Shown here piece by piece: positions 5,461-63,197 of a stretch of DNA of 64,000 nucleotides. Both the position numbers and the translations under genes were made by a program. Source of the stretch: a virus. Taxonomy: Duplodnaviria; Heunggongvirae; Uroviricota; Caudoviricetes. The stretch is taken from positions 1-64,000 of IMG/VR virus record IMGVR_UViG_3300018878_000133, one strand, 5' to 3'. Position 1 is the first letter of the stretch. Each line of letters begins with the position of its first letter. Under the pieces are notes generated by a model. It was given only the letters and a program-made list of their open reading frames with translations. It searched no databases and was not told the DNA's origin.

Positions 5461-6321
5461 ATGAGTAATATTATTGATGGTAAGGTTGTATCAAAAGCGG
5501 TTAAGGAGCGTGTAGCCGAAGAAGTTAAACAACTAAAAGAAAAAAGAGTTTATCCTTGTTTGGCTGTTATCTTAGTTGGTGAAGACCAAGCTTCGCAGGT
5601 ATATGTAAGAAATAAGCAAAAGGCTTGTGAGGAGACGGGTATTATTTCAAGACAGTTTAATTTACCTGCGGATATTGGCCAGGAAAAGCTTATTAGACTT
5701 ATCTACGACTTAAACATTGACGAAGCAATTGATGGTATTCTTGTGCAGCTCCCCCTCCCACCTGGTTATGACGAGAAAGCTGTTTTGAACGCAGTTAGTC
5801 CATACAAAGATGTAGATGCCTTTCACCCAAAAAATGTTGGTAAAATTATGATCGGCGAATATGATTTTCTTCCTTGTACCCCCGCAGGTGTTATGGAAAT
5901 GCTTGACTACTATAATATTGAAGTAGCTGGCAAAGAGTGTGTTGTTGTAGGTAGATCTAATATTGTCGGAAAGCCAATGAGCATGCTATTGCTTCACAAA
6001 GACGGCACTGTCACAACAGCGCATTCTAAAACTAATGACTTGACAGAAGTTTGTCGTCGGGCTGACATTCTTGTGGTTGCCGTCGGCAGTCCTGGGTTTA
6101 TTACAGCAGATATGGTTAAAGACGGCGCTGTCGTTATTGATGTCGGAATTAACCGTGTAGACGGCAAGCTCTGTGGTGATGTCGATTTTGAAAATGTTTC
6201 ACGCAAAACATCATGGATTACTCCGGTACCTGGTGGTGTCGGACCTATGACAATTGCAATGCTTATGCAGAATACCGTCATCGCAGCTAAAAATCAAAAT
6301 AAGTATAAGCTATATCTGTAA
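5461..6321 (+). CDS. folD: bifunctional 5,10-methylene-tetrahydrofolate dehydrogenase/cyclohydrolase
   Basis: Full-length match to the FolD fold: 'ILVGEDQASQVYVRNK', 'DGILVQLPLPPG', 'DVDAFHP.NVG', 'GRSNIVGKPMSMLL', 'PVPGGVGPMTIAML'. Local GC is higher than the surroundings. Confidence 0.9.
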   Translation: MSNIIDGKVVSKAVKERVAEEVKQLKEKRVYPCLAVILVGEDQASQVYVRNKQKACEETGIISRQFNLPADIGQEKLIRLIYDLNIDEAIDGILVQLPLPPGYDEKAVLNAVSPYKDVDAFHPKNVGKIMIGEYDFLPCTPAGVMEMLDYYNIEVAGKECVVVGRSNIVGKPMSMLLLHKDGTVTTAHSKTNDLTEVCRRADILVVAVGSPGFITADMVKDGAVVIDVGINRVDGKLCGDVDFENVSRKTSWITPVPGGVGPMTIAMLMQNTVIAAKNQNKYKLYL

Positions 6322-25000: not shown

Positions 25001-26823
25001 ATTGCTGCGATAATACTGGCAAGTACACTGTTGAGCGTGTCCGTCTTACCGGTATCGAGTGGGGCACGGCAGAAATGCCTTTAGCTGATGCTAGTTTTAT
25101 CACATCTTTGTTTCCAGTATTTGATGAAGCAGGTAATCTTGTTAGTGGTATAAGAGGTATTGACGAAAAAAACAATCCTTTAGATGACGCTTATTTAGTT
25201 GGTACTTGCTATATTACAAAGCTCACAGGTGAGGAGTATACAGAAATTAAAGCTCATTATCCTTATCTTGATATTATATATGGTGAAATGACTTCAGATG
25301 TTATATTTATGGGTGCTGATGGTGAAACAGTACTACATCGTGAAACCATTATATCATATAATTCTGAGATAGTTGATTGTGAAGATCCGGTCTATTTAGG
25401 TGACGATGGCCAAGTGCCTGAAGGTATGATTGCTAAGCCTACTAAAGATTCTACTGAAGAGTTTAATTACGAGTGGATTGGTTGGACTAGAAAATTAGGT
25501 GAGGGTGTTCATGCGGATGCTTTACTTGGAGTTGCTGGTAATCGAATACTTTATCCTGCTTTTGAGGCAATTAGGCGTAGTTATCTTATAACATTTATAA
25601 ACCAAACTGCCCCAGAGGGAAACCAATTATTAGCTGAAATTTATGTTCCTTATGGTGAAGATGCAGACTACTTTGGCGCTGGCTATCCCACTCCGGTTGT
25701 ACCATCTTCTGATATATATGAGTTTACTGGTTGGCATCCAGCACCAGAAAAAATTGTTGGTCCGATGACTTGCTATGCACAATTTAAGGTATCAGAAAGC
25801 TCCTGGCATGTAGTAGACATTTATGATATTGGTGAATATTATGATTATAATGAAAAGCTACAAGTCGGGCATACGCTCAATCCAGATGGTACAATGGCTA
25901 TTATTAAATATAATAACTATCAAAATGCTGCTGTTACTGTACCAAAAAATATTGAGGTCGCTGGCATGCCTTATACTGTAATACGATTAGGTGGTTTTAA
26001 CGATCATGATGAATTGGAGTTGATTAATTTACCTGATTCTCTAGAAACAATTGATTCAAGGGCTTTCCAAGGCTGTGATACAATAAAAGAAATAACTATT
26101 CCAGTTAATGTTTCTACTATTAATGACGGCGCTTTTGCAGAATGCTTGAAGCTAACGAAAATTAATGTTGCAGAAGGCAATACTAAATTTGTAGTTAAAC
26201 AAAATTGTTTAATTGATAAACAAAGTAAAAAGTTACTTCAAGGTCTAACTAACGAGATTCCACAAGATGGTTCTGTAGTCAGTCTTGGTAGATATTGCTT
26301 TGCTAAAATGCCAATTACAGCTATTGAAATACCTAATGGTGTAAGTTCTATTGCTGACAATGCATTTAGTCATTGTGAGCAACTACAAAATGTTGTGTTG
26401 CCAAGTACACTAAAAGAATTACGTGATATTTGCTTTTCTTGGTGTTATAAGCTATCTGAAGTAGTCTTACCAGAAGGCTTAACTGACATAAGAACTTATG
26501 TATTTAATCAATGTATATTAGAAAGTGTTATAATCCCATCTACTGTAACCAACATCATGGAGAGAGCTTTTGGATATATGTCAACTTTGAAGAGTGTAAC
26601 TTTTAAAAATACTGAAAGTGGTGACAAGCAGCCTTTCTATATTCATCCAGGAGCCTTCATAAATTCTGGTAGCCAGGATAACCCTGTTATATTTAATTTC
26701 CCATGGACAGAAGAGCAACATTACAATTACTATTCTGGAGTAGACGATCAAGGCAGAGAAAAAGACCCAACATTTGGTGCAAGTAATTGTATTCTTAATT
26801 TTGAGTATGAGGAGGAAGCATAA
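19069..26823 (+). CDS. giant multidomain fibre/adhesin with CotH-like and BspA-type LRR regions
   Basis: 2584 aa. N-terminal 'IIRHRRGTTEEWQKINLVPENCELVIEE...CKIGNGKTKFLDLPY' fibre motif, then a ~500-aa coiled-coil. CotH-family-like block 'YVFTFFALMTDQRAKNLFLTRW...YPYFYDNDTIFGINNEGALVFDYFHED'. C-terminal repeats 'NDGAFAEC..L..I.I..G' of BspA/LRR_5 type. Confidence 0.75.
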   Translation: MAYNIIRHRRGTTEEWQKINLVPENCELVIEECFDGSRKCKIGNGKTKFLDLPYVDDTTKTELLKKINLTEKTFDTKVSKIKSTQGALLVTVENLDEKLTKAEEALSDSISSNVEVLEEKLDKLAESTSSDLAMSIASLDEKLGKEISNKATGTTKQLKALEQNVNGLVATLEEHIHPAITELDVKIQSKAEELENLHSVEVQNLYNELATKAAELSNKINDCISTDKALRKLINDTDTKQSKDLQDAIANFEIQLTMVDDQHKNKLSELVQQIEDLIIADGTLGQELNSFKQQSSDSVNNILTQINSLNEQLSNDDVLLLNKIYEVSNILTAITASIQAELDNLEKDTNDRFTRIADEITVADQAQKASYENLLTTLLNYVTKIYAEIADLVDDDIMILNKVYAVENVLNAKINQTKNTLATEIAYVSEALNQTDSRLTDEIAKVDANLNALSDKVDTKIVQSITNIENSVAKTIEETKSELTENVESLRSTTNLTFIEKQETLDSLDKQIKDTQNSISAEISAVTSSIKTNKEELEKELYELGEVVEANTTRITETNTELELQSKRINNLIAPKPGELTRDEEVIDIRLGYNGIDHASAGDAVRAIGDDLDALKASLPSYIPSNAVDGLLYEDNQLWLTSKDIPVGDPVTITGGTGGGGSISTVRVINNLPSTSFTISKGNEALINFTYTSFENEVPTGDGVYSVVINDKKIETLSGSIQHGIAKSLNVADHLKNGSNTVKVTCTDQYGSLRTLVYTISQIELRLESAFNSTQIFNDAITFRYKVFGQIEKTAYILVDGAEVSIKKLGASVSGNEITLLIPKQAHGCHKITAHVSAVVGDNTVTSNILEYEIICIENDNNTAIITSVYDFEEATQGDLVSIPYMVYDPAKINSDIELIVYSQVAGELIEIDRTSITVDRSQQFWNTRKYPNGIAVFEISYTYNLYGVQTTITKSHTVRVAELEVDVSPEEDSMQLYLSAQGRSNNEQNPAIWEYTQAPDGDKTYNTVTTSFEGFNWTSNGWITDNAGDTCLRLNGDAKAIINFKPFAEDFKANGKTIEFEFVVRDVNDRDAVVIDCFDGSKGFRATPDTAFLKSSGTEVSCRYKDEERVRVAIAVEHSDTTSRFVSIYLDGILSGVQRYADTDSFQQNNPLTIKLGSNLCGLDIYNIRIYNKALSTSAALNNYIADQTVPTTRLQLMTDNDILDENGKVSYDRVKALGQIPIITFTGPMPTYKGDKKKKTTRMKFEDPTHPEMNFDVLLDQIDVQGTSSQFYIRKNWKVKLPEARAHMPGAIPAKVFCVKVDYAEATGTHNTGVANYVETFYDREEVILPPQKDDTRVRTTIQGFPIIIFEKETEDSEPVFSSKGNFNYDKDAENAFGFTEEYKDYGVECWEFCNNTSDTVNFAGEITADWLEDFEPRYVPESANFERIEELKEVEELAASGKGTMTSAQRNELATLMSNCIANFKEMHDWVLSTATYSLIDGKKVAITPAPLTEPIVYGETTYTEDNEEYRLAKFKYEFKNYFNMHYSSMYYVFTFFALMTDQRAKNLFLTRWKEDDGVFRWYPYFYDNDTIFGINNEGALVFDYFHEDTDQLGSSNVFNGQNSVLWNNFRLCFPKEIEDTYSELRSSGKLTYNKIIEQFVTNGSDKWSAAIYNADADYKYVSMAREHVAHKDEDGNEVTGIDASNLYQVRGPGEHHLRYFIDNRINYCDSKWYAGNYPSDDIFLRIYTPKAADDATQEEIDRINASLAVVPANPNITITPFSDMYAGVRYKSGTLQQQRLKAGESYTFKPLNENETFGDTETAIYGASEISSLGDLSGLYCGVINLSNAAKLTELTVGNPDSAYYNDNFREISVGSNRLLRYIDLRNCSGLGIAGENPQKTLELSGCPNIEHIYTEGTNLTSVDLPTSGYIKTLHLPASINTLVIKNQHYLYPQRGENGSDDFIDGFYVEGYQNIRTLCIENCPNLNTNEILANCCDNTGKYTVERVRLTGIEWGTAEMPLADASFITSLFPVFDEAGNLVSGIRGIDEKNNPLDDAYLVGTCYITKLTGEEYTEIKAHYPYLDIIYGEMTSDVIFMGADGETVLHRETIISYNSEIVDCEDPVYLGDDGQVPEGMIAKPTKDSTEEFNYEWIGWTRKLGEGVHADALLGVAGNRILYPAFEAIRRSYLITFINQTAPEGNQLLAEIYVPYGEDADYFGAGYPTPVVPSSDIYEFTGWHPAPEKIVGPMTCYAQFKVSESSWHVVDIYDIGEYYDYNEKLQVGHTLNPDGTMAIIKYNNYQNAAVTVPKNIEVAGMPYTVIRLGGFNDHDELELINLPDSLETIDSRAFQGCDTIKEITIPVNVSTINDGAFAECLKLTKINVAEGNTKFVVKQNCLIDKQSKKLLQGLTNEIPQDGSVVSLGRYCFAKMPITAIEIPNGVSSIADNAFSHCEQLQNVVLPSTLKELRDICFSWCYKLSEVVLPEGLTDIRTYVFNQCILESVIIPSTVTNIMERAFGYMSTLKSVTFKNTESGDKQPFYIHPGAFINSGSQDNPVIFNFPWTEEQHYNYYSGVDDQGREKDPTFGASNCILNFEYEEEA

Positions 26824-31419: not shown

Positions 31420-32736
31420 ATGGCAAACAACAACTTAATCACAGTTGATGTTTTAGCTTCTGTATTAGGAGCATTTAAAGAGTCATTACAAAAAAATGAC
31501 TCTTTAAATGCTGTTACGGAATCTCAGGATAGTGACGTTCCTGTTCTATTTATTACTGGTTCTATACCGGATTCGAAGAACTATGTTAATGGTGAACTTG
31601 AATATACCTCTAAAACATTAACTTTTAAAGCTTATACAAAAATTAAACTACAAGGAACCTCTACACTAGCGCTTCCAAAAAAGAATTTTACTTTTAAATT
31701 GTTTAGTGATGAGTGGCGTACAATGCCGCTAAGCATTAATTTTAGAAATTGGGGTTCATCTAACATCTTTACTCTTAAGGCAGACTATAACGATATTCTA
31801 CATGCTAGAAACATAGTATGTTCTAATTTATGGAGCAAGGTAGTTGCCAGCAGACATGATTATGATTCATTGCCAGAAGAACTTAGAAATAGCCCAAATA
31901 ATGGTGCTATTGATGGTTTTCCTGTAAAAGTTTATATTAACAATGAATATGTCGGTTTGTATGGCTTAGTTACTAATAAGAATGCCAAACTTTTCGGTAT
32001 GAATGAAAATAATCCTAAGCATACTGTACTTCAGGCTGAATTTAATGATAATGGTAATAGTTCCGTACAAAAAAATCCATGTAACTTTAATACTGTATGG
32101 AATGGTGAAGATACTTATTGGAGTGTTGAAGTCGGTAATGACGTAACAAATATTAAAAATAAATTTCAGACTTTATATGAAAATGTGCATGGTGGTTATG
32201 TTAACAACGTTTCTGATGCTATTACACGTAGTCTTGATAAACAGAGCCTGATAGACTATTACATACTTCAGGACGTCATTCTAGGTACAGATGGCTTAGC
32301 CAAGAACATGCTTCTTGTTACGTATGACTTAGATAAATGGTATTTAAGTGCTTATGATCTCGACGCTACTTTTGACTTATCTTGGGAGGGAGAATTGCTT
32401 AACTCAAGTAGAGTATCATTATTTGGCGACGACGGACGTCCTGCAATTAACAATCCTTACCTAAACCATTATAGTATACTTCCTAGCATTATTGGCAACT
32501 TTTATTCCAATGATTATATTGAGAGATACGCAGAGTTGAGAGAGTCAGTTTTAAGCTATAGTTCAATAATGTACGAGTTTGAAAAATATATTAATAGTTA
32601 TGGTGGCGAAGATGAGGCTATAAAAGATACTATTGCCAATCCGGATATTCCTTTAGTGACCACAAACACTTTAAGCTATTTAAGAACGTTTGTTAAAGAG
32701 CATCTTGAGTACTTAGATTCTAAATATCTTAATTAA
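31420..32736 (+). CDS. CotH-like domain protein
   Basis: 'LIDYYILQDVILGTDGLAKNMLLVTYDLDKWYLSAYDLDATFDLSW' resembles the CotH family core (...DY.......D....N...........W....WDLD.SFG). Confidence 0.5.
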   Translation: MANNNLITVDVLASVLGAFKESLQKNDSLNAVTESQDSDVPVLFITGSIPDSKNYVNGELEYTSKTLTFKAYTKIKLQGTSTLALPKKNFTFKLFSDEWRTMPLSINFRNWGSSNIFTLKADYNDILHARNIVCSNLWSKVVASRHDYDSLPEELRNSPNNGAIDGFPVKVYINNEYVGLYGLVTNKNAKLFGMNENNPKHTVLQAEFNDNGNSSVQKNPCNFNTVWNGEDTYWSVEVGNDVTNIKNKFQTLYENVHGGYVNNVSDAITRSLDKQSLIDYYILQDVILGTDGLAKNMLLVTYDLDKWYLSAYDLDATFDLSWEGELLNSSRVSLFGDDGRPAINNPYLNHYSILPSIIGNFYSNDYIERYAELRESVLSYSSIMYEFEKYINSYGGEDEAIKDTIANPDIPLVTTNTLSYLRTFVKEHLEYLDSKYLN

Positions 32737-47377: not shown

Positions 47378-47399
47378 GAGACTATGCTTATTTCTTAAC
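47378..47399 (+). repeat. repeat family copy 3 (TAGAGACTATGCTTATTTCTTA)
   Basis: Same core motif, directly upstream of the permuted tRNA-like element. Confidence 0.5.
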
Positions 47400-47408
47400 G
47401 CCTTTTAA

Positions 47409-47480
47409 GCGGGTGGTCGTTGGTTCGAATCCAACCATTTCATCTGTTAGGTGAAATGTAGCTCAGCGGTAGAGCACCTT
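47409..47480 (+). ncRNA. permuted tRNA-like element (T-arm + 3' acceptor strand joined by a 5-nt loop to 5' acceptor strand + D-arm)
   Basis: 'GTTGG-TTCGAAT-CCAAC CATTTCATC tgtta GGTGAAATG TAGC-TCAGCGGTA-GAGC'. GGTGAAA pairs with TTTCATC (one G-U) across a closing loop; no anticodon arm. Confidence 0.4.
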
Positions 47481-47569
47481 TTAGCTAGTCCAAATATTTT
47501 TAATAATTTATTAAATTATTAATTTAATAAGTGCTAAATTTATAAAGAACACATTGTATAATAAAATAC

Positions 47570-48230
47570 GTTAGGTGCCACGAAGCGTTGGTTTAGGCTG
47601 TGATTTAAGGTCAACGCCTAACTCTAGCGAAGAAGCAGCAGTGGTAAATGGAGTGTGATGAACAGCCTTAAATTGGTTTGTAAGTGTTGAAAACCTTTCA
47701 ATGAGATAAGTAATGCTTATGAGATTGATAAAAAACTTAAAAAAATAAATTCGGTTGAACTCCGATATGTCTATGAGGATGCACTGTGGAATAGATGATT
47801 AGTTGGATGCTCCGTAAGGGTCATTACAAGGTCATTTCCTCATAGATGAACCGCCCGCAGGCCATTAACTAGCATAGGCCGTTCCGTTTTATTATTGGCG
47901 GATGATTAAGGACAGTAGGGACAACTTCGCCTGCCGAGAGAATGAAGCTCGCTCAGGTAAAAGCCATAAGCTATCTGGTAACAGAACGTGGAATTAATGA
48001 TGAGAGATAAGTTGTCAGATAATCAGTGGGAAAGATTATCATTTATTCCGTAGTGAGTATAAAGCCATATTAGAATACGCTACAACGTACAACTTTGGAA
48101 ACGGACGCCTGTACAGCGTGACCCAAAGGTAGCAGAGTTTAGGCATAATAGTTTAATGGTAGAACACGGCCGAGTGTTGGGCTGGGTGGCGGTTCAATTC
48201 CGAATGTTGCCGACCAAAAAGAAAAACTCT
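47570..48230 (+). ncRNA. ORF-free GC-elevated structured segment (candidate large ncRNA/intron-like element)
   Basis: ~660 nt with no ORF >=60 aa in any frame. TGTATAAT promoter at 47565; long-range inverted repeats (GCGTTG...CAACGC; TCTATGAGGA...TCCTCATAGA); contains a tRNA-like 5' half (GGCATAATAGTTTAATGGTAGAAC) near its end. Confidence 0.35.
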
Positions 48231-48505: not shown

Positions 48506-48644
48506 GCGGGATTGGCGGAATAGGCAGACGCAAGGGACTTGCTTGATGACATAGTGTCTATCTAGTAGGGGCAGTACCTACATCAAGTACCAAAAATCCC
48601 TCGGTAGTGATACCGTATCGGTTCAAGTCCGATATCCCGCACCA
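48506..48644 (+). tRNA. tRNA-Leu-like gene with ~52-nt insertion in the anticodon loop
   Basis: Acceptor GCGGGAT/ATCCCGC + ACCA; Leu-type D-arm TGGCGGAATAGGCAGACGC; long variable hairpin CGGTAGTGATACCG; T-arm ATCGG-TTCAAGT-CCGAT. Anticodon stem AGGGA/TCCCT encloses 59 nt, including a 7-bp hairpin CTTGATG...CATCAAG. Confidence 0.5.
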
Positions 48645-48727: not shown

Positions 48728-48804
48728 GGACCATTAGCTCAGTTGGTTAGAGCTCCCGGCTCATAACCGGTCGGTCCTAGGTTCGAGTCCTAGATGGTCC
48801 ACCA
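48728..48804 (+). tRNA. tRNA-Met (anticodon CAT)
   Basis: GGACCAT-TA-GCTC-AGTTGGTTA-GAGC...CTCATAA...CTAGG-TTCGAGT-CCTAG-ATGGTCC-A-CCA; clean cloverleaf. Confidence 0.85.
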
Positions 48805-48809
48805 TATAT

Positions 48810-48897
48810 ACGCCATTAGCTCAGCGGTGAGGGCACTGGTCTTATACACCACGGTAATCTTCGGGATTGCGAGGTTCGACTCCTCGATGGCGTACCA
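48810..48897 (+). tRNA. type-II (long variable arm) tRNA with apparent TAT anticodon
   Basis: Acceptor ACGCCAT/ATGGCGT, D-arm GCTC-AGCGGTGA-GGGC, anticodon arm CTGGT-CTTATAC-ACCAC, 17-nt variable hairpin with TTCG loop, T-arm CGAGG-TTCGACT-CCTCG, ACCA. Confidence 0.55.
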
Positions 48898-48965: not shown

Positions 48966-49117
48966 GGCGCGTTGGTCAAGCGGTTAAGACACCGCCCTTT
49001 CGTTAGATTAGCCAAAAGGTAAGGCAGGCCACTAGAGATAGAGGTTATGTGTCAGTTCGAGTCTGACATCTAGCACCAACGGCGGTATCACGGGTTCGAT
49101 TCCCGTACGCGTCACCA
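48966..49117 (+). tRNA. tRNA-Glu-like gene (anticodon-loop CTTTC..AC) interrupted by a 77-nt tRNA-shaped insertion
   Basis: Outer gene GGCGCGT-TG-GTCAAGCGGTTAAGAC-A-CCGCC-[..]-GGCGG-TATCA-CGGGT-TCGATTC-CCGTA-CGCGTCA-CCA. Insert 49012-49088 has its own acceptor GTTAGAT/ATCTAGC, D-arm GCC-AAAAGGTAA-GGC, T-arm GTCAG-TTCGAGT-CTGAC and terminal ACCA. Confidence 0.5.
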
Positions 49118-49640: not shown

Positions 49641-49715
49641 TCTGCGTAATAGTTTAACTGGTAAAACACCTGACCTAATCTGTTGGGAGACACGGTTCGA
49701 GTCCGTAAGCGTAGT
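49641..49715 (+). ncRNA. tRNA-like element with good D- and T-arms but unpaired acceptor ends
   Basis: TAGTTTAACTGGTAAAAC D-arm, CTGAC-CTAATCT-GTTGG, ACGG-TTCGAGT-CCGT; 5' TGCGTAA and 3' AGCGTAG do not pair. Confidence 0.35.
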
Positions 49716-49926
49716 GCTATATAGTATTTTAATAAGTTCCCACTGGGTGGACTGGGGCGGGAATATCGTTGGACGTGAGAATCAGCTAATCGTCACCAGG
49801 GAGTAGAGTAGCCGTGCCCCTGTATTGATACTGGTAGTGCTTTATTGATAAAAGATAAACGTATTGTTAAAGGATGCTACACTGGTAATCTGGTGAACAA
49901 TGTAAGTAGTCCACGGTGAATTTTAT

Positions 49927-50000: not shown

Positions 50001-50346
50001 TTAATATAATCTTTCTGAGGCGGCAGAGTACACTTAAGAGACGAAGCAATGCCAAAGGGCCCCCGAACTGTGGTGGAAGAAGTAAAGGCTGAAAAAATGA
50101 TCGGTACCACGAGAGATTCCCGCTGACTTGTGTTACAGTGGTGAGACTGAACGCCGACCTTCACAAGAGGTACCTAACGGGTTAGTAAGCAAGAATCGGG
50201 TCCAGGATGAGGAGTGGCTACGCAGACCAACTTAGTAATTTATCATACCATGCACGTCCCCGTATGGAGAGTGCTAAATACATGGTCGTAAGTGAAAATA
50301 GTGTCTAGGCGTAGAGTAAGAAAGCTTATATTATTTTTTAACTATA

Positions 50347-50420
50347 TATGCGGAGATAGTTTAATTGGATAGAACGCCGGCCTTTTGGTCGGAAGTATAG
50401 GTTCAAATCCTACAACCGTA
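50347..50420 (+). ncRNA. tRNA-like element with 6-nt 'anticodon' loop and unpaired acceptor
   Basis: GCGGAGA-TA-GTTT-AATTGGATA-GAAC-G-CCGGC-CTTTTG-GTCGG...ATAGG-TTCAAAT-CCTAC-AACCGTA; 5'/3' ends not complementary. Confidence 0.35.
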
Positions 50421-50736
50421 ACATAAGGACATCCTTCCTGATATTTAAAAATCACACAAATGGATCGAAGCTTAACGTAATCGGAGCGTACGGTGTTAGT
50501 CACACAAATCTTAAACGTATGACTGGTTTCTATGAAGGGTAAAGAGATAAAGGTTTCCCTTAATCTGGACCGACCAGAGTAGATGTGATACTACATAAAC
50601 AAAAGCCTAACCTGATTTGATTTATGTCAGTCAAGGGGTCGACTCAACTGCAGAACGAGTTACTCATAAATCTTTTTCTTTATAAAATAAATTCTTAAAT
50701 AAATTCTTGATGCTCTGCTGCGACATAAAGATGTTT

Positions 50737-50760
50737 TGTACTGTATAATATTAGTACAGT
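50737..50760 (+). promoter_or_regulatory. extended -10 promoter (TGTATAAT) embedded in a palindrome
   Basis: GTACTG-TATAATAT-TAGTACAG: inverted repeat flanking the -10 element, ~45 nt upstream of the 50803 ATG. Confidence 0.5.
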
Positions 50761-50802
50761 CAATAAAATTCTAATATCTTTATGTATCGAAGGGAGTAAA
50801 TA

Positions 50803-51567: not shown

Positions 51568-51964
51568 GAAAAAGACAGATATGTTTAACAAGTATTAAAA
51601 ATAGTAAAACATATTTAAGAATGAGTGTCAAGCTAAGAATTTAATTTATAAGAATATTATAGCCAGCTATCTATGAGTTGGCTATATTACATAAATTAAT
51701 TTACAGAAAAAATAAGATTTTTATAAAATATTTAAATTTTTTACTGTATAATATTACATGGTAATTTTTACCATTGTTTTGTGAATAGCTTTATTAATCA
51801 TATGCATTCCCCTTTCAATGATACATATGATACAAAGCAACAAAGTCCAAACGGTGAAAGCCCGACAAGACTTGAGAGAAAGAGCTTGGCAATTTTTAAA
51901 ATTCTAATTTAGATTATACGCTAAATTAGATATAGAATAAAAATAATTTAAGGAGATATTAGCT

Positions 51965-52082
51965 ATGAAAAAGTCAGTTAATTTTAATTATAATTCACTA
52001 ATTAAAACAGCTGGCGGAGCTATGCCTAAATTTGATTATTCAAGACCACCAGAGTGGCGTCATTGGTTATTCAGTGAGTAAA
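51965..52082 (+). CDS. small hypothetical protein (38 aa)
   Basis: RBS AAGGAG; terminated by the hairpin at 52101. Confidence 0.3.
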
Positions 52083-52100
52083 AATACTCGATAATCTAGT

Positions 52101-52141
52101 GACGCTTATAATGATTAAATTCATTTAAGCGTCATTTTTTA
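52101..52141 (+). terminator. rho-independent terminator
   Basis: GACGCTTA-...-TAAGCGTC followed by ATTTTTT. Confidence 0.65.
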
Positions 52142-52212
52142 TGCTTAAAATATTTATAAAATTTGTTAAAATATATAAATTCGTATCGTATAATAAATAT
52201 GTAATTAAATAT

Positions 52213-52290
52213 GAAGTGAAAAGGGACTCATAAGGCTGACAAAAAGTGTAGGCACTGAGGTTAGTTCGACTCTAACTCACTTCCACAAGG
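52213..52290 (+). ncRNA. D-arm-less tRNA-like element
   Basis: Acceptor GAAGTGA/TCACTTC, T-arm GTTAG-TTCGACT-CTAAC, internal 'CTCATAA' (Met-anticodon-loop-like) but no D-arm or anticodon stem. Confidence 0.3.
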
Positions 52291-52468
52291 TTAAGAGATA
52301 AGCCAAGATGTTTTTGCAAGAACGTCAAAATCTCCTGAGAGACGCGAAACTCCGAAAGTACAACACACTACAATGTATGGACGAAAAAGCCTTCAATGGT
52401 ATTCTGCAAGAAGTAAAATACAGAATCAGACTTATTCATTAGTGTGATGTAGATAAGTCATTTAATAT

Positions 52469-52812: not shown

Positions 52813-52910
52813 CACGATATAGCTTATGTGGTAAAGCATCCGAATCCCAGGAAAAAGACCAAGATTGATTTCTTGAAGATAAGTAGGTTCAAGTCCTGCT
52901 GTCGTGTCCA
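52813..52910 (+). ncRNA. over-long tRNA-like element (~97 nt) without a canonical anticodon arm
   Basis: Acceptor CACGATA/TGTCGTG + T-CCA, D-arm GCTT-ATGTGGT-AAGC, T-arm GTAGG-TTCAAGT-CCTGC. The 44-nt central region forms CAAGA-TTGATT-TCTTG instead of a 5+7+5 anticodon arm. Confidence 0.35.
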
Positions 52911-55062: not shown

Positions 55063-55630
55063 GAGGAGCCAGGTGGGTTTCGTAGAGTTACCGTTGAATA
55101 ACTATGTGCTTGTCGTTTTAAGAAACGAGTGGGTATAAAGCCCCACAAATATCAAATAGTAAGGGCACATGCGAGCTATGAAACCAGAAGTTAAGTAGTG
55201 AAGGAAGCATGGGTGTGGCTGGTTACCGCTTTATCAAAAATCATAGTGTTAACTATGTGAGGTAAAGATGTCTATGTGGTGATATCTACTGTGAACTGTT
55301 GTGCGAGTTCACCTATTTGATAGGGCTGGTTGAAAGACCCTGGTCCATCGAGTAAGGGAACATATCCCTTAACAAAATCCTTAATGGTCATTGTGCTGAC
55401 AATGTGGTAATCTGAAACATAGAATTTTGGTGTAAAGACTAAAATGTTTGGGCAAACGATAAATGCTCCCAAATTTGCTTATTAAGGAATAAGATAGTTG
55501 GCAGACAACGATAAAATCAGTTATAGCCTGTACCCTTGAGAAACTCGTATCAGGTAATTTATATTACTGTGGATAAGCAGGCAAGTAGTGAAATAAAAGG
55601 GTAAGAGAATAAACTACATTATAAAATATA
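55063..55630 (+). ncRNA. ORF-free GC-elevated segment (candidate structured RNA)
   Basis: ~570 nt between tRNA-Asn and tRNA-Met-like. No plus-strand ORF >=60 aa; only a 66-aa minus-strand ORF of doubtful reality. Many G/C-rich local hairpins (e.g. GGGTATAAAGCCCCAC). Confidence 0.3.
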
Positions 55631-55706: not shown

Positions 55707-55850
55707 AAGGTTCGCTTGTACCTTGCCAACACAAGTACGCACGGCTCAGCGGTAAATGAGCGTAACGGCAGTTCGCAGGAAGTTATGCGAACTAAGCGTT
55801 GGTACTACAGCAATGTGATACAAAGCATCGGCAATGCACTGTAGCTATAT

Positions 55851-55936
55851 GGCAAATTGGTGTAAGGTAGCATAAGACAGAATGCCCTATCAACGGGATT
55901 GGATTGTCAGGAACTAGTTCGAGTCTAGTATTTGTC
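55851..55936 (+). tRNA. tRNA-like gene with ~16-nt insertion in the anticodon loop
   Basis: Acceptor GGCAAAT/ATTTGTC (no CCA), T-arm ACTAG-TTCGAGT-CTAGT; anticodon stem GACAG/TTGTC encloses a 23-nt loop containing the mini-hairpin GCCC-TATCAAC-GGG. Confidence 0.4.
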
Positions 55937-56168
55937 TTTTAAGCTTCTTTGTTATAGCATTAATGCGCATTATCTATGCAATCCAAGGCTACGGTAATCG
56001 ACCTATAACAGAAGACAAATTGATGCATCAATCGTTTCACCAAGGTGTGAGCGGGTCAACATTCCAAGAGTAAGAACTTTGGTTGAGGAATGAGAGGTTT
56101 AATATAGATAGGATGAACAGTTAGCAACGCTTGAGGTAACCTTAAAAAACTCAGCCATGCTACCATAT

Positions 56169-56313
56169 GGCTCCGTAGTTCAGATGGTTAGAACGCCTGC
56201 CTGTGCTTTATTAGTTTAATAGTAAAACACTCTTATAAAGAGATGCTAGTGCAAGACTAGTATAAGGCTCCACACGCAGGAGGTCGTCGGTTCGATCCCG
56301 ATCGGAGTCGCCA
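56169..56313 (+). tRNA. tRNA (anticodon-loop remnants CTGTG..AC or CT..CACAC: His/Val-like) interrupted by a 68-nt tRNA-shaped insertion
   Basis: Outer gene GGCTCCG-TA-GTTC-AGATGGTTA-GAAC-G-CCTGC-[75-nt loop]-GCAGG-AGGTC-GTCGG-TTCGATC-CCGAT-CGGAGTC-G-CCA. Insert carries acceptor-like CTTTAT/ATAAGG, D-arm-like GTTT-AATAGTA-AAAC and T-arm-like CTAGT-GCAAG-ACTAG. Confidence 0.5.
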
Positions 56314-56665: not shown

Positions 56666-56705
56666 CCTAGTTAGTAATGCAGCTGCTACTAAGTTACTAA
56701 CTAGG
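56666..56705 (+). promoter_or_regulatory. large imperfect palindrome overlapping RBS/start region of the GIY-YIG gene
   Basis: CCTAGTTAGTAA-tGCAGCTGCtactaag-TTACTAACTAGG; 12-bp perfect arms around the palindromic GCAGCTGC core. Confidence 0.5.
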
Positions 56706-56713
56706 TGATTCTT

Positions 56714-57385
56714 ATGGCTTATATTTATAAAATTACAAATAATCTTAATGGCAAGGCTTACATAGGTCAAACACTTTATTCATTAGAAAAAAGGTTTGCA
56801 GAGCATTTAAAAGACAGCGCTAGAACTGGTCACAGTAAAAGACCTCTGTACAAAGCTATGTTAAAGTATGGTTATTCAGCTTTTACTATAGAAGTTGTTG
56901 AAGAACTAGCTGATGATCCAGAGCTTTTAAATGACCGAGAAATTTATTGGATTACGAAATTTCATACTTTTTGTAAAGATCCGCTTGGTCCTGGTTATAA
57001 CGCTACTTTGGGTGGCGGAAGCAAGATGCTTTATGATAGACGCGCGATTATTCAGTATTTACGTAATAATAATTGTGTTAAGGATGCTGCAGAAGTTTTT
57101 AAGTGCACAAAAGACACAATTATCGATATTGCTAAAGCTGCTAATATTCAAGTTAAGTCTAGCCCGGATTTAGTAAAAGAGCTTTATAGTAAACCAATAA
57201 ATATTTATGATTTAAAAAATAATTTAATTCATAGTGTTACTAATTCTTATGAAGCTGAGCAGTGGATTCGAGATAGTGGTATTTCTGATGCTAAAGGCGG
57301 CGCAATTAGAGCTCACATTCTAGAGGTTTGCAAAGGTAAACGAAAAACTGCTTATGGCTTTATATGGAGATACTTGAAAGATTAA
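56714..57385 (+). CDS. GIY-YIG homing endonuclease (free-standing, seg-like)
   Basis: 'YIYKITNNLNGKAYIGQT...RFAEH' GIY-YIG catalytic motif at the N-terminus and a basic C-terminal DNA-binding region. Track ORF starts at GTG 56705; the ATG at 56714 is preferred. Confidence 0.8.
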   Translation: MAYIYKITNNLNGKAYIGQTLYSLEKRFAEHLKDSARTGHSKRPLYKAMLKYGYSAFTIEVVEELADDPELLNDREIYWITKFHTFCKDPLGPGYNATLGGGSKMLYDRRAIIQYLRNNNCVKDAAEVFKCTKDTIIDIAKAANIQVKSSPDLVKELYSKPINIYDLKNNLIHSVTNSYEAEQWIRDSGISDAKGGAIRAHILEVCKGKRKTAYGFIWRYLKD

Positions 57386-57750: not shown

Positions 57751-58450
57751 AATATCAACAATTTGTACCTTGAAAGATAAATATAATTACTAACTCAGTG
57801 CTAAACACAAGACACGCTTCTTGTGCTGAGAATGCAACTAAGCGAAAGCTGAACAATGTGTGATGGTAACATAAGAGGGATACCTCGGAAACCGCGCTAC
57901 TTATATATGCGAGTATATGAGTTAAGGGTAGGACCCGAAACATATGTTGTATGTGCTGATGTTATAGCAAGTAATGGTAGGAAGAGTCTCGTGAGAGTAA
58001 TAGAAAGCTTGGTTAATAGCTGAGCCGAATCCAAGTTAGGGTTTAGTTGGTGACTGTATTACACCTTGGAAATGCCAATAATCTCATTTGTCGTGAACCA
58101 TAGAAATGTGGGTATAAGAGATTCAAGTAACCTCCTAGTAGCCGAAGACAATTAACAAAGAATTAATGCTAGTATATAATTAGGAATACTGATATTAATT
58201 TTTTCTGAATAGACGGTGAGGGGTGCAGGTAATCAATCCTGTCATAGTTTATGTAGTCCAGGGCTTGGCCGTTAACCAAGTACCCAGATTTCGTGGCAAG
58301 AAGTTAGGGGTCGCTCCCCGAAGCTCAGACTTGTCATCTATGTGACCGAATGTACTTGAATATAACAAGTGGTAAGGCGAAGGCCTAGGAATGTATTATA
58401 TTTATCTTTGAATGTATAAGGTGTACCTCCTTTGTTTATTTTGCAAGGAT
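57751..58450 (+). ncRNA. candidate long non-coding RNA (promoter-to-terminator unit without ORF)
   Basis: ~700 nt, GC noticeably higher than flanking DNA, bounded by the TTGTATAAT promoter and a strong intrinsic terminator. No plus-strand ORF >=60 aa. Confidence 0.35.
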
Positions 58451-58492: not shown

Positions 58493-58579
58493 TTTATTGT
58501 ATGATATTATAGTAAAAGTTTATGATCAAGTAATGATGAATTGGAATATCTTTATCGATTATGTATGGGAGAATTTAAA

Positions 58580-59131
58580 ATGAAAAAACCATTAGTTGTT
58601 AATTTAACAGGAGCTCCAGGTGCTGGAAAAAGCACTGGTGCAGCAACTATTTTTGCAGAGCTTAAAAAAGCTGGTGTTAATGCAGAACTTGTAACAGAAT
58701 TTGCTAAAGATAAGACCTGGGAGCATAATATTATGGCTCTAGGTTGTCAAGAATATGTGTTTGGTAAACAGTCTTATAGATTACGTAGATGCCGAGATGA
58801 TGTCGATGTGATTGTGACTGATAGCCCGCTTCCTCTTAGTATTATTTATAATACTAATCCTGCAATAACTGAGTCTTATCCAAGGTTAGTCATGGATGTT
58901 TATAATACATATGAAAATATTAATTTCTTTATTAACAGAGTTAAACCTTACAACCCTAAAGGCCGAAATCAGACAGAAGAAGAAAGTGATCGTATAAGTG
59001 TCCGCATTAAAGATTTATATAAAGGTCTTGGTATTGATTATTTTGAAATTAACGGCGATAATGAAGGTTATGACTATGCAGTTAAGACTGTATTAAGCAT
59101 ACTAGCAGGAGGTATAAAATATGAGTACTAA
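58580..59131 (+). CDS. P-loop NTPase (NadR/AAA_28-like kinase fold)
   Basis: Walker A 'LTGAPGAGKSTGAA'; Walker-B-like 'VDVIVTDSPL'; RBS GGGAGAA 7 nt upstream of the ATG at 58580. The track ORF begins earlier at 58541. Confidence 0.55.
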   Translation: MKKPLVVNLTGAPGAGKSTGAATIFAELKKAGVNAELVTEFAKDKTWEHNIMALGCQEYVFGKQSYRLRRCRDDVDVIVTDSPLPLSIIYNTNPAITESYPRLVMDVYNTYENINFFINRVKPYNPKGRNQTEEESDRISVRIKDLYKGLGIDYFEINGDNEGYDYAVKTVLSILAGGIKYEY

Positions 59132-59975
59132 AGATGCACTTGGTGATAGAATGAAAGAATTCTATGAAAATAGGAGTAAACATTATCTACCTAGACGAGT
59201 TCCTGTAATCATTAGACTTGACGGCAAAGCTTTCCACACCTTCACTAAAGGTCTTAAGAGGCCTTATGACGAGATTTTCCACAATACTATGAATGCGACT
59301 ATGAAGTATCTCTGTGAGAATATCCAGGGTTGTAAGCTTGGTTATACACAGTCAGACGAAATCACTCTTCTTCTCACAGACTATGACACTCTTGATACCG
59401 ATGCTTGGTTTGGTTATAATGTGCAGAAAATGTGCAGCGTGTCAGCAAGCATGGCAACAATGGTTTTCAATAAGTATCTTAGAGAATTAATTGATAATTA
59501 TTTACAGTCTGATGTATGGGTAAACCATTATTGGGAAGAAGATGTTGAGAAATATGCTAATACATTAAAGAAGGCTATTGACAATGGTGCAATGTTTGAT
59601 TCTCGCTGTTTTAACATTCCTAAAGAAGAAGTTACCAACTGCTTCATCTGGCGTCAGCAGGATGCTACTCGCAACGCAATTCAGATGCTTGGTCAGTGCA
59701 ACTTCTCTCATAAGGAACTACACGGTAAGTCTTGCAATGACATTCAAGATATGTTAATGACTCAGAGAGGTATCAATTTTAATGATATGCCTACTGAGTT
59801 TAAACGTGGTGTCTGCTGTAATCGTGTAGAAAAAGAAGATATTTGTATTGATTTTAAAACAAAAGAAGAGACTCGCTGTATGAGAAGTGAATGGGTAATC
59901 GATAAAGAAATTCCCATTTTTACTCAAGATAGATACTACATTGAACGGTGGGTTTACTCAGAAGGAGATAAATAA
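59121..59975 (+). CDS. Thg1-like protein (tRNA-His guanylyltransferase / 3'-5' nucleotidyltransferase family)
   Basis: 'VPVIIRLDGKAFHTFTKGL..PYDE.F...M' and 'GYTQSDEITLLL' match the Thg1 palm-domain signatures (V.RIDG..FH.F...F.KP.D; GESDEYSF). Confidence 0.7.
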   Translation: MSTKDALGDRMKEFYENRSKHYLPRRVPVIIRLDGKAFHTFTKGLKRPYDEIFHNTMNATMKYLCENIQGCKLGYTQSDEITLLLTDYDTLDTDAWFGYNVQKMCSVSASMATMVFNKYLRELIDNYLQSDVWVNHYWEEDVEKYANTLKKAIDNGAMFDSRCFNIPKEEVTNCFIWRQQDATRNAIQMLGQCNFSHKELHGKSCNDIQDMLMTQRGINFNDMPTEFKRGVCCNRVEKEDICIDFKTKEETRCMRSEWVIDKEIPIFTQDRYYIERWVYSEGDK

Positions 59976-60767
59976 ATGCCTAAGCTTTTTGTTGTTTCTG
60001 ATATTCACAGTTTCTTAGAACCACTTAAAAATGCTTTAGACAGAGCAGGTTTTGACCCTAATAACGAAGAACACTGGCTGATTTCGTGCGGCGATTGCTT
60101 TGATAGGGGTCCTAATAGTATTGAATTGTTGCACTATTTAATGTCGCTTGAGCGAAAGATTCTAGTAAAAGGTAATCATGACCTACTTTTTGACGATCTT
60201 TGCGCAAGATGTTTTCCATATAGCCACGATAAGTCTAATGGCACTGTAAGAACTGTTCAAGACCTCGGTGGAAGTCCTCTTCCGGCGGATTTTGCTAAGT
60301 GCTGTGATACAGCTTTGAATAAAACGGCAGCGTATCGCGACCTACTTGTAAACTATTTTGAAACTGAAAAGTATATTTTTGTTCATAGTTGGATTCCTAC
60401 TATTACTCATTATGATAAAGGTGCTAGTAAGCCTTGGCACCAGGTTGGAAAATACTACGAATACAATGAGAACTGGCGTAATGCTTCCGAGGTAGAGTGG
60501 GAAGAAGCTATGTGGGGTAATCCTTTCTGGAAAGCACAAGACGGTATGAACAAAACCGGTAAGACAATCGTATTCGGACATTGGCATTGTTCTTTAGGTC
60601 ATTTATGCGATAGTCAAGGTGAGCTATCAGAGTTTGGTGATGATGCCAAGTGGGATCCGTACTTTAACGAATCTCAAGGAATCATCGGCATTGATCGCTG
60701 TACTGCACATACTGGTGAAGTTAACGTACTAGTTTTAGATGATAATTTTATTGGAGGCGATAATTAA
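59976..60767 (+). CDS. calcineurin-like metallophosphoesterase
   Basis: 'VVSDIHS', 'CGDCFDRGPNS', 'VKGNHDLLF', 'GHWH' match MPP motifs I-V (DxH, GDxxDRG, GNHD/E, GH). Confidence 0.75.
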   Translation: MPKLFVVSDIHSFLEPLKNALDRAGFDPNNEEHWLISCGDCFDRGPNSIELLHYLMSLERKILVKGNHDLLFDDLCARCFPYSHDKSNGTVRTVQDLGGSPLPADFAKCCDTALNKTAAYRDLLVNYFETEKYIFVHSWIPTITHYDKGASKPWHQVGKYYEYNENWRNASEVEWEEAMWGNPFWKAQDGMNKTGKTIVFGHWHCSLGHLCDSQGELSEFGDDAKWDPYFNESQGIIGIDRCTAHTGEVNVLVLDDNFIGGDN

Positions 60768-62245: not shown

Positions 62246-62410
62246 ATGAAAAAGGAAGCATCTATTGATAGAAGAATGTTTAAAAAATCACCTGAAGAAC
62301 TTGAACTCTACATGTATTTCAAAAAACGTGGCTTCAAGCTTGAGAACAAAAAGGGAAAGGGCTCTTATGAGCGCCGTCCTAAGCATATTTGGAGGTTTTT
62401 AAATGACTGA
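62246..62410 (+). CDS. small basic protein (54 aa), translationally coupled to downstream NTase
   Basis: RBS TTGGAGG 7 nt upstream; stop TGA overlaps the next ATG (ATGACTGA). Confidence 0.4.
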   Translation: MKKEASIDRRMFKKSPEELELYMYFKKRGFKLENKKGKGSYERRPKHIWRFLND

Positions 62411-63197
62411 AAGAGAACTTAAGATTTGTGAAAGACTAAAGCACGATTATAATTATGTGAAAAATCAAGGATATGAAGTTTTTGGCATATTTTTGCAAGG
62501 CTCACAGAATTATCAGTTGGATTATGAAGGCAGTGATATCGATACAAAGTGCATTGTTCTGCCTTCCGCTGAAGACCTTATTTTAAATAAGCAGCCTACA
62601 AGTACTACTCTTATATTAGAAGACAATTCACACATTGATTTAAAAGATATTAGACTTATGTGGCAATGTTTTAAGAAGCAGAACGTAAACTACCTTGAGA
62701 TTTTATTTACTGAGTTCTTTTACGTACCGCGCGACTACTTTTATTTTTGGCTCGAGATGCTTAGAATTAATGAGGATATCGCACACATTGATAATTATGC
62801 TGCTGTAAATTGTATCGTCGGTATGATCTTAGAGAAGAACGCTGCTTTGTGTCATCCTTATCCTACGTTAAAAGACAAGATTGATAAGTATGGATATGAT
62901 AATAAACAGCTTCACCATATTATTAGATGTAGAGAATTTCTTGACAGATACATTGATGGTGTATTATACAAAGATTGTCTAATTCCATACGACCGTGAAT
63001 ACTTAATTAGTGTAAAAGCTAATTATAGATATGATTTAGATCAAGCAAAAGCTATTGCAAAAGAAGCTGTTGACTATGCTAAAGCTAGAAAGCAGGCTTA
63101 TATAGATACTAATGAACGTAAGGTAGCTGAAGATACTTGTAACAGAATGGACTGTATTTTAGTAGATATCCTAACTAAATACTGGACGGAGAATTAA
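62403..63197 (+). CDS. Pol-beta-superfamily nucleotidyltransferase with helical C-terminal domain
   Basis: 'FGIFLQGSQNYQLDYEGSDIDTKCIV' matches the GS-x(9-13)-[DE]h[DE]h NTase active-site signature. Confidence 0.6.
   Translation: MTERELKICERLKHDYNYVKNQGYEVFGIFLQGSQNYQLDYEGSDIDTKCIVLPSAEDLILNKQPTSTTLILEDNSHIDLKDIRLMWQCFKKQNVNYLEILFTEFFYVPRDYFYFWLEMLRINEDIAHIDNYAAVNCIVGMILEKNAALCHPYPTLKDKIDKYGYDNKQLHHIIRCREFLDRYIDGVLYKDCLIPYDREYLISVKANYRYDLDQAKAIAKEAVDYAKARKQAYIDTNERKVAEDTCNRMDCILVDILTKYWTEN

Follow-up and report, generated by a model that had tools for sequence, protein, structure and literature searches.

A candidate family of tRNA-shaped introns in the anticodon loops of jumbo-phage tRNA genes

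The DNA considered here (positions 1 to 64,000 of IMG/VR virus record IMGVR_UViG_3300018878_000133; hereafter the window) belongs to a rumen/gut jumbo phage of ~220 kb that is found in many metagenome assemblies. Tail and lysin genes extend to about 47 kb and a tRNA array occupies 48.5-57.7 kb; within this array, a tRNA-Leu(UAA) gene at 48506-48644 is interrupted in its anticodon loop by a 52-nucleotide (nt) insert. A first-pass annotation of the DNA had assigned the gene to the Leu type, and each of the type-II elements that it named could be read from the sequence: an acceptor stem GCGGGAT/ATCCCGC followed by ACCA, a D stem of 3 bp (GCG/CGC), the long variable hairpin CGGTA-GTGA-TACCG, and the T arm ATCGG-TTCAAGT-CCGAT. 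The anticodon stem, AGGGA (48533-48537) paired with TCCCT (48597-48601), encloses 59 nt instead of 7, as the same annotation had reported.

Default ARAGORN called no tRNA at 48506-48644, and a scan of the 64-kb window at Rfam gathering scores reported nothing there; neither program therefore yields an alternative canonical fold that dispenses with the insertion, which the annotation had named as the competing possibility. When ARAGORN was run with its intron search, the locus was assigned to tRNA-Leu(taa), its intron being 52 nt long and placed at position 36, i(36,52), and with laxer filters the Rfam tRNA model (RF00005) matched it at 40.0 bits against a gathering score of 29, a 56-nt loop insertion being accommodated as a local insert. 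The minimum free energy (MFE) fold of the 139-nt precursor retains the outer cloverleaf together with the inner stem (z = -2.7). On the plus strand, the 5' exon (48506..48540) supplies the 5' strand of the acceptor stem, the D arm, AGGGA and loop residues C32, U33 and U34, and the 3' exon (48593..48644) supplies A35, A36, A37 and A38, TCCCT, the long variable arm, the T arm, the 3' strand of the acceptor stem and ACCA. Joined in silico, the exons are called by default ARAGORN as a canonical tRNA-Leu(taa), in which a 7-nt anticodon loop, CUUAAAA, accompanies the long variable arm and the 3-bp D stem, and the anticodon arm is identical to that of intron-less Leu(UAA) genes. The locus is thus a functional-looking tRNA-Leu(UAA) gene, from which production of a mature tRNA is predicted.

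Intron-less alleles were used to place the insert. The exon 24-mer GGAATAGGCAGACGCAAGGGACTT is present in 14 IMG/VR loci, in 12 of which it continues as ...AAGGGACTT|AAAATCCCTCG, that is, as an intron-less tRNA-Leu(UAA); in the remaining two (L003 and L009), the tRNA sequence ends within the anticodon loop or directly behind it. The same family includes an empty-site tRNA-Leu(UAA) (L022, 13138-13222), from a related phage, whose acceptor stem is that of the window gene and which matches the window gene, spliced in silico, at 90% identity. At the insertion point the intron-less alleles read CTT|AAAA, and the junction of the spliced window gene reads ...AAGGGACUU|AAAAUCCCU.... From these alleles, the insert can be placed at exactly 48541..48592 of the plus strand, between U34 and A35, in an unambiguous register, and the annotated size of 52 nt is confirmed both by them and by the ARAGORN intron search (option -i). 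BLAST revealed no close relative among cultured phages; matches there were at the tRNA level only and ended at the exon/intron boundary.

The insert itself resembles part of a tRNA. Its first seven nucleotides, GCTTGAT (48541..48547), pair 7/7 with nucleotides -11 to -5 of the insert, ATCAAGT (48582..48588), forming an acceptor-like stem to which G48548-C48581 could add an eighth pair; the 7-bp stem CTTGATG (48542-48548)/CATCAAG (48581-48587) of the annotation is present in the sequence in this overlapping register. Abutting the 3' strand of the stem is a T-arm-like hairpin with 5 bp and a 7-nt loop, GTAGG-GGCAGTA-CCTAC (48565..48581), and the stem is followed by an unpaired, discriminator-like A plus CCA (48589..48592), the A of CCA being the last base of the intron. 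The T-loop sequence is non-canonical in the Leu introns of this minihelix form (GGCAGTA in the window insert). Constraining the insert to the minihelix costs 0.5 kcal/mol relative to its MFE fold, and the two-sequence alifold consensus with a 52-nt homologue in L020 consists of exactly the acceptor stem and the T-arm-like hairpin. Two pairs covary between the sequences: acceptor pair 2-71 is C-G in the window and G-C in the homologue, and the first T-stem pair is G-C in the window and A-T in the homologue. Searched alone, the 52-nt insert had no Rfam match at E<=10. What had been described as a hairpin-containing insertion does hold a real hairpin, which can now be read more specifically as a mimic of the acceptor/T-arm half of a tRNA, a minihelix ending in N-CCA whose termini correspond to inner positions +1 and 76; the Leu insert is a stripped-down tRNA-like unit lacking a D arm and an anticodon arm.

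Two further genes of the array are interrupted in the same manner. A tRNA-Glu(UUC) gene (48966..49117, plus strand; 49.5 bits with the Rfam tRNA model, with an 80-nt insertion) contains a 77-nt intron at 49002-49078, between C36 and A37 of the loop CTTTC|AC. Searched separately, this intron matches the Rfam tRNA model over its full length at 41.2 bits, which passes the threshold, with only its anticodon loop abnormal, and the spliced product is called tRNA-Glu(ttc). A tRNA-Asp(GUC) gene (56169..56313, plus strand; 50.5 bits) contains a 68-nt intron at 56205-56272, between U35 and C36 of the loop CTGT|CAC; the intron has 7/7 stem pairs and a T-CCA tail, its spliced product is called tRNA-Asp(gtc), and the homologue in L020 is 92% identical and ends in CCG. 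Unspliced, the genes were misassigned by ARAGORN, Glu as SeC, Asp as His and, in a related phage, Met as Trp; the Glu and Asp miscalls arise because the program forces the intron to the canonical position, and removal of the segment from inner +1 to CCA gives loops typical of Glu and Asp. Intron-less orthologues of the Met and Gln cases found in relatives are present in the window itself, at 48728 and 49271.

The first-pass annotation had counted four independent tRNAs with anticodon-loop insertions. In the window, three genes (Leu, Glu and Asp) share this kind of insert, and the locus at 55851-55936, offered as a further case, is a free-standing, degenerate tRNA-like gene with no clean anticodon arm. 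Its broader suggestion, that the insertion recurs rather than being a one-off accident, is borne out by the two additional window cases and by 17 distinct cases in related phages, described below. The gene at 52813-52910 was considered as a member of the class and rejected as another degenerate tRNA-like gene lacking a clean anticodon arm. Five such non-decoding or degenerate tRNA-like genes were noted (52813-52910, 55851-55936, 48142-48212, 49642-49715 and 50349-50422), all with good acceptor and T arms and with irregular anticodon regions (extra hairpins, a 6-nt loop, an anticodon 'aat'); that at 52813-52910 is kept in relative L024 (18275-18372).

In order to survey the insert among related phages, ~95 loci, mostly from rumen and gut metagenomes, were collected via a 665-aa protein encoded upstream of the array and via two other window proteins; 110 loci (1.25 Mb, 742 tRNA calls) were scanned, including the window and 14 unrelated IMG/VR loci. 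ARAGORN intron search returned 22 distinct introns of at least 30 nt, 15 of which obey the rule seen in the window, namely 7/7 acceptor pairs followed by N-CC. A structural scan added two Gly(UCC) hosts, for a total of 17 distinct introns in seven tRNA species. A relaxed scan, in which 6/7 pairs and any tail of 0-5 nt were allowed and hits were accepted if a default ARAGORN tRNA was restored, returned the same 17, all of which had 7/7 pairs and a 4-nt N-C-C-A/G tail; its only extras were register-shifted duplicates and three long candidates (145-191 nt) without an N-CC tail, which were taken as artefacts of neighbouring tRNA genes. An abutting hairpin with a 5-bp stem and 7-nt loop is found in 17/17 introns of the family, and removal restores a canonical tRNA with a 7-nt loop in 17/17. 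Family introns measure 52-133 nt, and those of the minihelix form 51-52 nt.

The position of the splice site depends on the frame of reference. In the numbering of the outer tRNA it lies at 34/35 in Leu-UAA, at 35/36 in Asp-GUC, Asn-GUU and Gln-UUG, and at 36/37 in Glu-UUC, Met/Ile-CAU and Gly-UCC; it is constant within each tRNA species and differs between species, whereas in the numbering of the inner unit the intron always begins at +1 and ends after 76, indicating that the determinants reside within the intron. The base preceding the 5' junction is a pyrimidine in all seven species (U in five, C in two).

The geometric rule is not specific when taken by itself: block-shuffled loci gave 17-30 matches to it in full, and comparable spurious matches occurred in the real sequence, consisting of AT-rich junk or of ordinary tRNAs with weak flanking pairs, without canonical loops. 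Only hits that restored the outer tRNA were counted for this reason. Exon-only patterns produced 26 chance matches in GTDB genomes and IMG/VR, none with tRNA context and none exceeding 5/7 pairs in the corresponding stem. In GTDB genomes, all matches to the Leu exon pattern with an allowed gap of 45-75 nt were due to chance, so that no cellular genome combining this exon context with an intron was seen; matches to the Met pattern in IMG/VR were likewise all due to chance. Pattern searches of IMG/VR yielded no intron-bearing Leu or Glu gene, and a search of IMG/VR through a neighbouring protein yielded no relative. Taken with the census, these controls leave us with hardly any doubt that 48541-48592 is a genuine member of a family of tRNA-shaped introns.

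Covariation was evaluated on a fixed-register alignment of the trimmed ends of the 17 introns (A2); a covariance model of full-length introns was dropped, MAFFT having mis-registered the ends of several sequences. In the top half of the intron, 11 of 12 stem pairs change on both sides and 99.5% of cells pair. The covariation score is 0.89, whereas shuffles score 0.28 and slid partners no more than 0.17; these figures carry the caveat that one scan, unlike the ARAGORN detection, selected for 7/7 acceptor pairing. Columns G53, C56, C61, C74 and C75 (tRNA numbering) are invariant; base 76 is A in 15 introns and G in two, the discriminator varies, and the bottom half exhibits no conservation. The exons of four intron-bearing Leu alleles, from phages at about 80% protein identity, have 100/100 stem cells paired; both bases have changed in 10 of the 25 pairs, and the anticodon arm is the same throughout. 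In most loci, no other gene for that anticodon accompanies the interrupted one. Because the stems of both inserts and exons covary, the intron-bearing tRNAs appear to be maintained genes and not decaying insertions.

The introns are sparsely distributed, with intron-bearing vs intron-less distinct genes numbering 4 vs 27 for Leu-UAA, 1 vs 24 for Glu and 2 vs 17 for Asp. Related introns nonetheless recur in different hosts: the acceptor GTTTGAG/CTCAAGC-ACCA is common to a Met intron (L041) and a Leu intron (L083), and T-arm/acceptor segments are shared among Gln, Gly and Asn introns. This patchy distribution, together with the occurrence of related introns in different tRNA species, indicates that the element probably is, or was, mobile. 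A free-standing GIY-YIG homing-endonuclease gene (56705-57385) is located in the array ~400 nt downstream of the intron-bearing tRNA-Asp, and in relatives L028 and L029 genes for free-standing homing endonucleases of the GIY-YIG and HNH types lie among the tRNAs at comparable places; spread of the intron by collaborative homing is a reasonable idea. Separately, two contigs from independent assemblies, L018 (JGI 3300018427) and L019 (ENA ERZ27248326), both begin at window position 49002, the first base of the Glu intron, and each extends 2.7 kb downstream, which suggests that variants coexist whose sequences diverge just upstream of the Glu intron boundary; the null explanation is ordinary branching of the assembly graph at tRNA repeats.

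Other genes and RNAs were noted in the surroundings of the introns. Directly after the tRNA array is a full-length ROOL RNA (57770-58406, 286 bits); a ROOL RNA likewise follows the array in L029 (9509-10156, 300 bits). Directly downstream of the window copy, at 58541..60767 on the plus strand, genes matching Pfam and PHROG profiles encode a P-loop kinase (AAA_28), a Thg1-like 3'-5' nucleotidyltransferase and a metallophosphoesterase, a trio that also adjoins the array in L024 and that may serve ribozyme-processed or damaged tRNAs. A Pol-beta-type nucleotidyltransferase-like protein of 264 aa is encoded at 62403-63197; it had no match in a PDB sequence search, and its predicted structure reached a predicted local distance difference test (pLDDT) score of 40. 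Beyond the window, a Pnkp-type kinase fused to an HD domain and a cREC protein are encoded in L110 (10278-11222 and 19208-19594). The lysins of the phage are of the Gram-positive type, and the host group is likely Firmicutes.

Upstream, in a 1.15-kb non-coding stretch before the tRNA-Leu gene, a YrlA-like (Y RNA-like) match was found at 47391-47510 (39 bits, E = 8.6e-7, below the gathering score of 69), the tRNA-like domain of which comprises a T arm, CGTTGG-TTCGAAT-CCAACC, and a D arm, GTAGCTCAGCGGTAGAGC; no Ro/Rsr gene was seen. A pistol self-cleaving ribozyme is present in L029 (2769-2839, 65 bits), directly after a tRNA at 2686-2765, and none was found in the window. Larger introns of about 180-250 nt occupy anticodon loops of tRNA-Leu(UAA) or tRNA-Lys(UUU) in L029 (3199-3533), L046 (5110-5380) and L051 (1825-2095); they are group-I-sized, and L029, the sole one of the three loci to be scanned, had no Rfam match at the gathering threshold. 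Within the array, tRNA-Ile(UAU) (48810-48897) has a 15-nt extra hairpin, AATC-TTCG-GGATT, in its variable region, which is unusual for Ile, and a DUF3800-XI RNA motif lies at 55322-55368 (40.1 bits, just above the gathering score of 37.8). Five G+C-richer non-coding stretches between tRNAs (49716-49926, 50001-50348, 50423-50802, 51568-52468 and 55707-56168) contain no open reading frame (ORF) and no Rfam match, and may hold further structured RNAs. Elsewhere in the window are a structural module with a 2584-aa protein bearing BspA-type leucine-rich repeats (19069-26823), a CotH kinase-like protein (31420-32736) and a FolD-like enzyme (5461-6321).

As judged from predicted folds, each intron of the family is a tRNA gene, whole or stripped down, that sits inside the anticodon loop of a second tRNA. 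We propose that the inner tRNA mimic would recruit ordinary tRNA end-processing enzymes as 'splicing endonucleases'. RNase P would cut 5' of inner +1, leaving a 5' exon with a 3'-OH, and an endonuclease that measures the CCA end would cut after inner A76, leaving a 3' exon with a 5'-phosphate. The acceptor, D and anticodon stems of the outer tRNA would hold the exon halves together, with a nick in the anticodon loop, and an ATP-dependent RNA ligase could then close the nick, as T4 Rnl1 does on broken anticodon loops; the products would be a mature tRNA-Leu(UAA) and a free 52-nt minihelix. RNase P is proposed for the 5' cut because the conserved features of the introns match its determinants: the 12-bp coaxial acceptor/T stack, a single-stranded 5' leader and a 3' tail with C74 and C75 are all present, and they appear to be exactly the features read by the bacterial enzyme, its cleavage of these RNAs being predicted. 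C74 and C75 reportedly pair with RNase P RNA (Kirsebom & Svard 1994), that of type B among them (Wegscheid & Hartmann 2007), and acceptor/T minihelices with a 3' NCCA are reported to be classical substrates (McClain, Guerrier-Takada & Altman 1987); the enzyme also prefers U at -1. Thermotoga maritima RNase Z and E. coli RNase BN offer precedents for a cut after CCA. We consider it probable that the insert is removed to yield a working tRNA, and regard the chances that RNase P makes the 5' cut as evenly balanced; the pathway as a whole, in which the nuclease and the ligase are putative assignments, is put forward tentatively, as somewhat less likely to be right than wrong.

A number of points weigh against this scheme. 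Splicing and cleavage alike are deduced from DNA sequence. Firmicute RNase Z is inhibited by CCA, and precursors in which CCA is encoded are matured by exonucleases, at the cost of the 3' exon in the present case; it is therefore not obvious which enzyme would make the 3' cut. The kinase and phosphoesterase genes nearby suggest 2',3'-cyclic-phosphate/5'-OH chemistry, and RNase P and RNase Z give the opposite ends. With its non-canonical T loop and no D arm, the 52-nt insert would be a weaker RNase P substrate. Neither the 64-kb window nor the next 10 kb of the ~220-kb phage yielded an RNA ligase (Rnl1, Rnl2 or RtcB); the search comprised Pfam or PHROGs on every sizeable window ORF (both on most) and, in the further 10 kb, mainly precomputed Pfam marks plus a few PHROG and NCBIfam scans. 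Finally, in the comparable introns of Lak megaphage tRNAs, discussed below, a leader of 26-30 nt separates the 5' splice site from the inner unit, so that an RNase P cut alone cannot set that site, and the model extends to Lak introns only if modified.

The chemistry implied by the neighbouring genes is the strength of the main rival explanation, in which a dedicated, metal-independent endonuclease of phage or host recognises the minihelix and leaves cyclic-phosphate/5'-OH ends that are healed and sealed, or sealed directly by RtcB, again giving a spliced tRNA. Healing and sealing have precedents in T4 Pnkp/Rnl1 and fungal Trl1, and the genes at hand would suit such a route: the AAA_28 kinase, Thg1-like protein and metallophosphoesterase directly downstream of the array here and also present in L024, the Pol-beta-type protein at 62403-63197, and the Pnkp-type kinase-HD fusion and cREC protein just past the window. 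The YrlA-like RNA at 47391-47510 may be added, since YrlA RNAs are associated with rsr/rtcB repair operons in bacteria. Yet Pfam/PHROG scans of the window ORFs and the next 10 kb gave no candidate for the endonuclease, and the ligase is missing from the same stretch; the healing genes are more simply explained by repair after host anticodon nucleases, and could also clean up after self-cleaving ribozymes such as the pistol of L029. A dedicated nuclease moreover leaves the conservation of RNase P determinants (12-bp stack, C74, C75 and the -1 pyrimidine) unexplained, and we judge this route unlikely. That same conservation and covariation of the inner top half could instead mean that the inner tRNA-like RNA, the tRNA halves, or both are the functional products, for instance as decoys against host defences that target tRNAs, with exons that are never rejoined; the array holds other non-decoding tRNA-like genes (52813-52910, 55851-55936 and 48142-48212) besides the YrlA-like RNA, so the phage makes tRNA mimics anyway. 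A production device of this kind is improbable in view of the perfect 7-nt loop restored by removal in 17/17 cases, the retention by the exons of all cloverleaf stems and of the anticodon loop sequence, which halves would not need, the usual status of the interrupted gene as the only one for its anticodon, and the unconserved bottom half of the intron.

Little credence is given to the possibility that the inserts are selfish, mobile, tRNA-derived DNA that inactivates its target, the interrupted genes being pseudogenes. The patchy distribution (4 intron-bearing vs 27 intron-less Leu(UAA) genes), the similar introns in different tRNAs (Met in L041, Leu in L083), the homing-endonuclease genes of both types in the arrays and the failure to find a ligase in the window plus 10 kb would all be expected of such an element, but mobility is equally compatible with splicing, as group I introns illustrate. 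Decay is contradicted by the exons of diverged alleles, which remain 100% paired with 10 compensatory pairs and an unchanged anticodon arm, by structural selection on the intron itself, by a canonical loop that can be restored after every insertion, and by the lack of a backup gene at most loci. Self-splicing or self-cleavage, by a miniature group I-like intron or a pair of small ribozymes, is very unlikely. Anticodon loops of bacterial and phage tRNAs are classic group I sites, U34/A35 being the very site in cyanobacterial tRNA-Leu(UAA); the 5' exon ends in U, and relatives possess 180-250-nt introns at such sites as well as the pistol ribozyme. Against this, any group I core is far longer than 52 nt, the terminal base of the intron is A and not G, no Rfam ribozyme or intron matched at E<=10 on the intron or at E<=0.1 on the array, and the conserved elements are solely those of a tRNA top half. 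Group I identity was accordingly rejected, there being no P3-P9 core, a length of 52 nt vs more than about 200 nt, and family ends of CCA/CCG rather than G. An archaeal/eukaryal-type bulge-helix-bulge (BHB) intron cut by a splicing endonuclease can scarcely be entertained: the anticodon-loop location is apt, and ARAGORN/tRNAscan-type programs can model the insert in this way, but both junctions lie at the same end of the 7-bp helix (separated from it by 0 nt at the 5' junction and by 4 nt at the 3' junction), the positions are 34/35, 35/36 and 36/37 rather than 37/38, the genome is that of a tailed phage with a ROOL RNA and Gram-positive-type lysins, and no EndA-like gene was seen. The BHB geometry itself was examined and rejected, the internal loop having 3-5 nt in its 5' strand and 6-8 nt in its 3' strand, with no pair of 3-nt bulges flanking a 4-bp helix.

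For one lineage, then, the data yield a rule that is simple and can be tested: the intron consists of the top half of a tRNA and is bounded by inner +1 and the CCA end. To our knowledge, the established routes of tRNA intron removal are only two, self-splicing of group I introns in bacteria, organelles and phages and the BHB endonuclease of archaea and eukaryotes. It is possible, though we hold it with more doubt than confidence, that a further, undescribed route operates in bacteria and their phages, in which a tRNA-mimic intron is released by RNase P and a 3'-end nuclease and the exons are ligated, the element being a mobile 'tRNA-in-tRNA' parasite. If the proposed mechanism is true, a new splicing pathway would have been made from housekeeping enzymes, the harmless invasion of essential genes by tRNA-derived elements would be explained, standard tRNA finders would be shown to mis-assign the isotypes of such genes, with consequences for inferences on phage codon use and recoding, and the element would pay its way through processing by machinery present in every cell.

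Compared with known systems, the introns share with the group I introns of cyanobacterial tRNA-Leu(UAA) the type of host gene, the same phosphodiester (U34/A35) for Leu, a 5' exon ending in U, a patchy, mobile-like distribution and neighbouring homing-endonuclease genes; they differ in being 52-133 nt rather than more than 200 nt, in having neither a P3-P9 core nor a terminal G, and in conserving a tRNA top half. With archaeal and eukaryal BHB introns, processed by EndA/TSEN plus RtcB or Trl1, they have in common the proposed protein-dependent logic of cutting and ligation with exon halves held by the tRNA body, but here BHB geometry is lacking, the position varies and the context is a bacterial virus. 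The proposed recruitment of RNase P and a 3' endonuclease to exact ends by an embedded tRNA shape is that of MALAT1/mascRNA and of mitochondrial 'tRNA punctuation', where, in contrast, the flanks stay unjoined; here the flanks are tRNA halves that need ligation. In T4 anticodon-loop repair (breakage by PrrC, healing by Pnkp, sealing by Rnl1), the substrate is, as presumed here, a tRNA nicked in the anticodon loop, although that break is host-inflicted damage whereas the present one would be programmed, and neither Rnl1 nor Rnl2 was found in the 74 kb examined. Phage genomes of such size commonly carry tRNA repair enzymes (PMC7824862).

The closest parallel is with Lak megaphages, in the tRNAs of which 'enigmatic' introns were reported in 2019, one said to 'encode a possible tRNA' (Devoto et al.; PMC6784885); a 2026 survey of 262 jumbo-phage genomes stated that such introns 'could encode another tRNA' (PMC13037316). 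The literature that we found consists of descriptive reports, with no mechanism for these introns, and as far as it extends, neither the structural rule nor the match to RNase P determinants is stated in the Lak and survey papers. Both groups are non-group-I inserts in phage tRNA anticodon loops that contain a tRNA-like unit, both are polymorphic for presence and absence between related phages, and the Gly(UCC) site of Lak is the Gly(UCC) site found here. Upon re-reading of Lak Table S6, the inner units were seen to have a 7-bp acceptor stem and a TTCGAAT-type T arm, with the 3' splice site at the inner discriminator, within 1 nt; a 26-30-nt leader (a 5-bp hairpin and an A-rich linker) precedes inner +1, and CCA is absent. 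The Lak 'Tyr(GTA)' hosts, having short variable loops, seem to parse better as Asn, in which case their site, CTGT|..|TAA, would be the Asn(GUU) site of the present family. The lineages themselves differ, phages of ~220 kb with a ROOL RNA and Gram-positive-type lysins as opposed to 540-kb Prevotella phages, and so do the introns: those of the window lineage begin exactly at inner +1, end after an encoded CCA (CCG in two), and are reducible to a minihelix of 51-52 nt without a D or anticodon arm. Together these comparisons indicate that in both lineages the 3' splice site falls where the nested tRNA gene, as encoded, ends, that the 5' splice site coincides with inner +1 in the window lineage only, and that the window family is a distinct, leaderless and CCA-terminated variant of a phenomenon already described but as yet unexplained.

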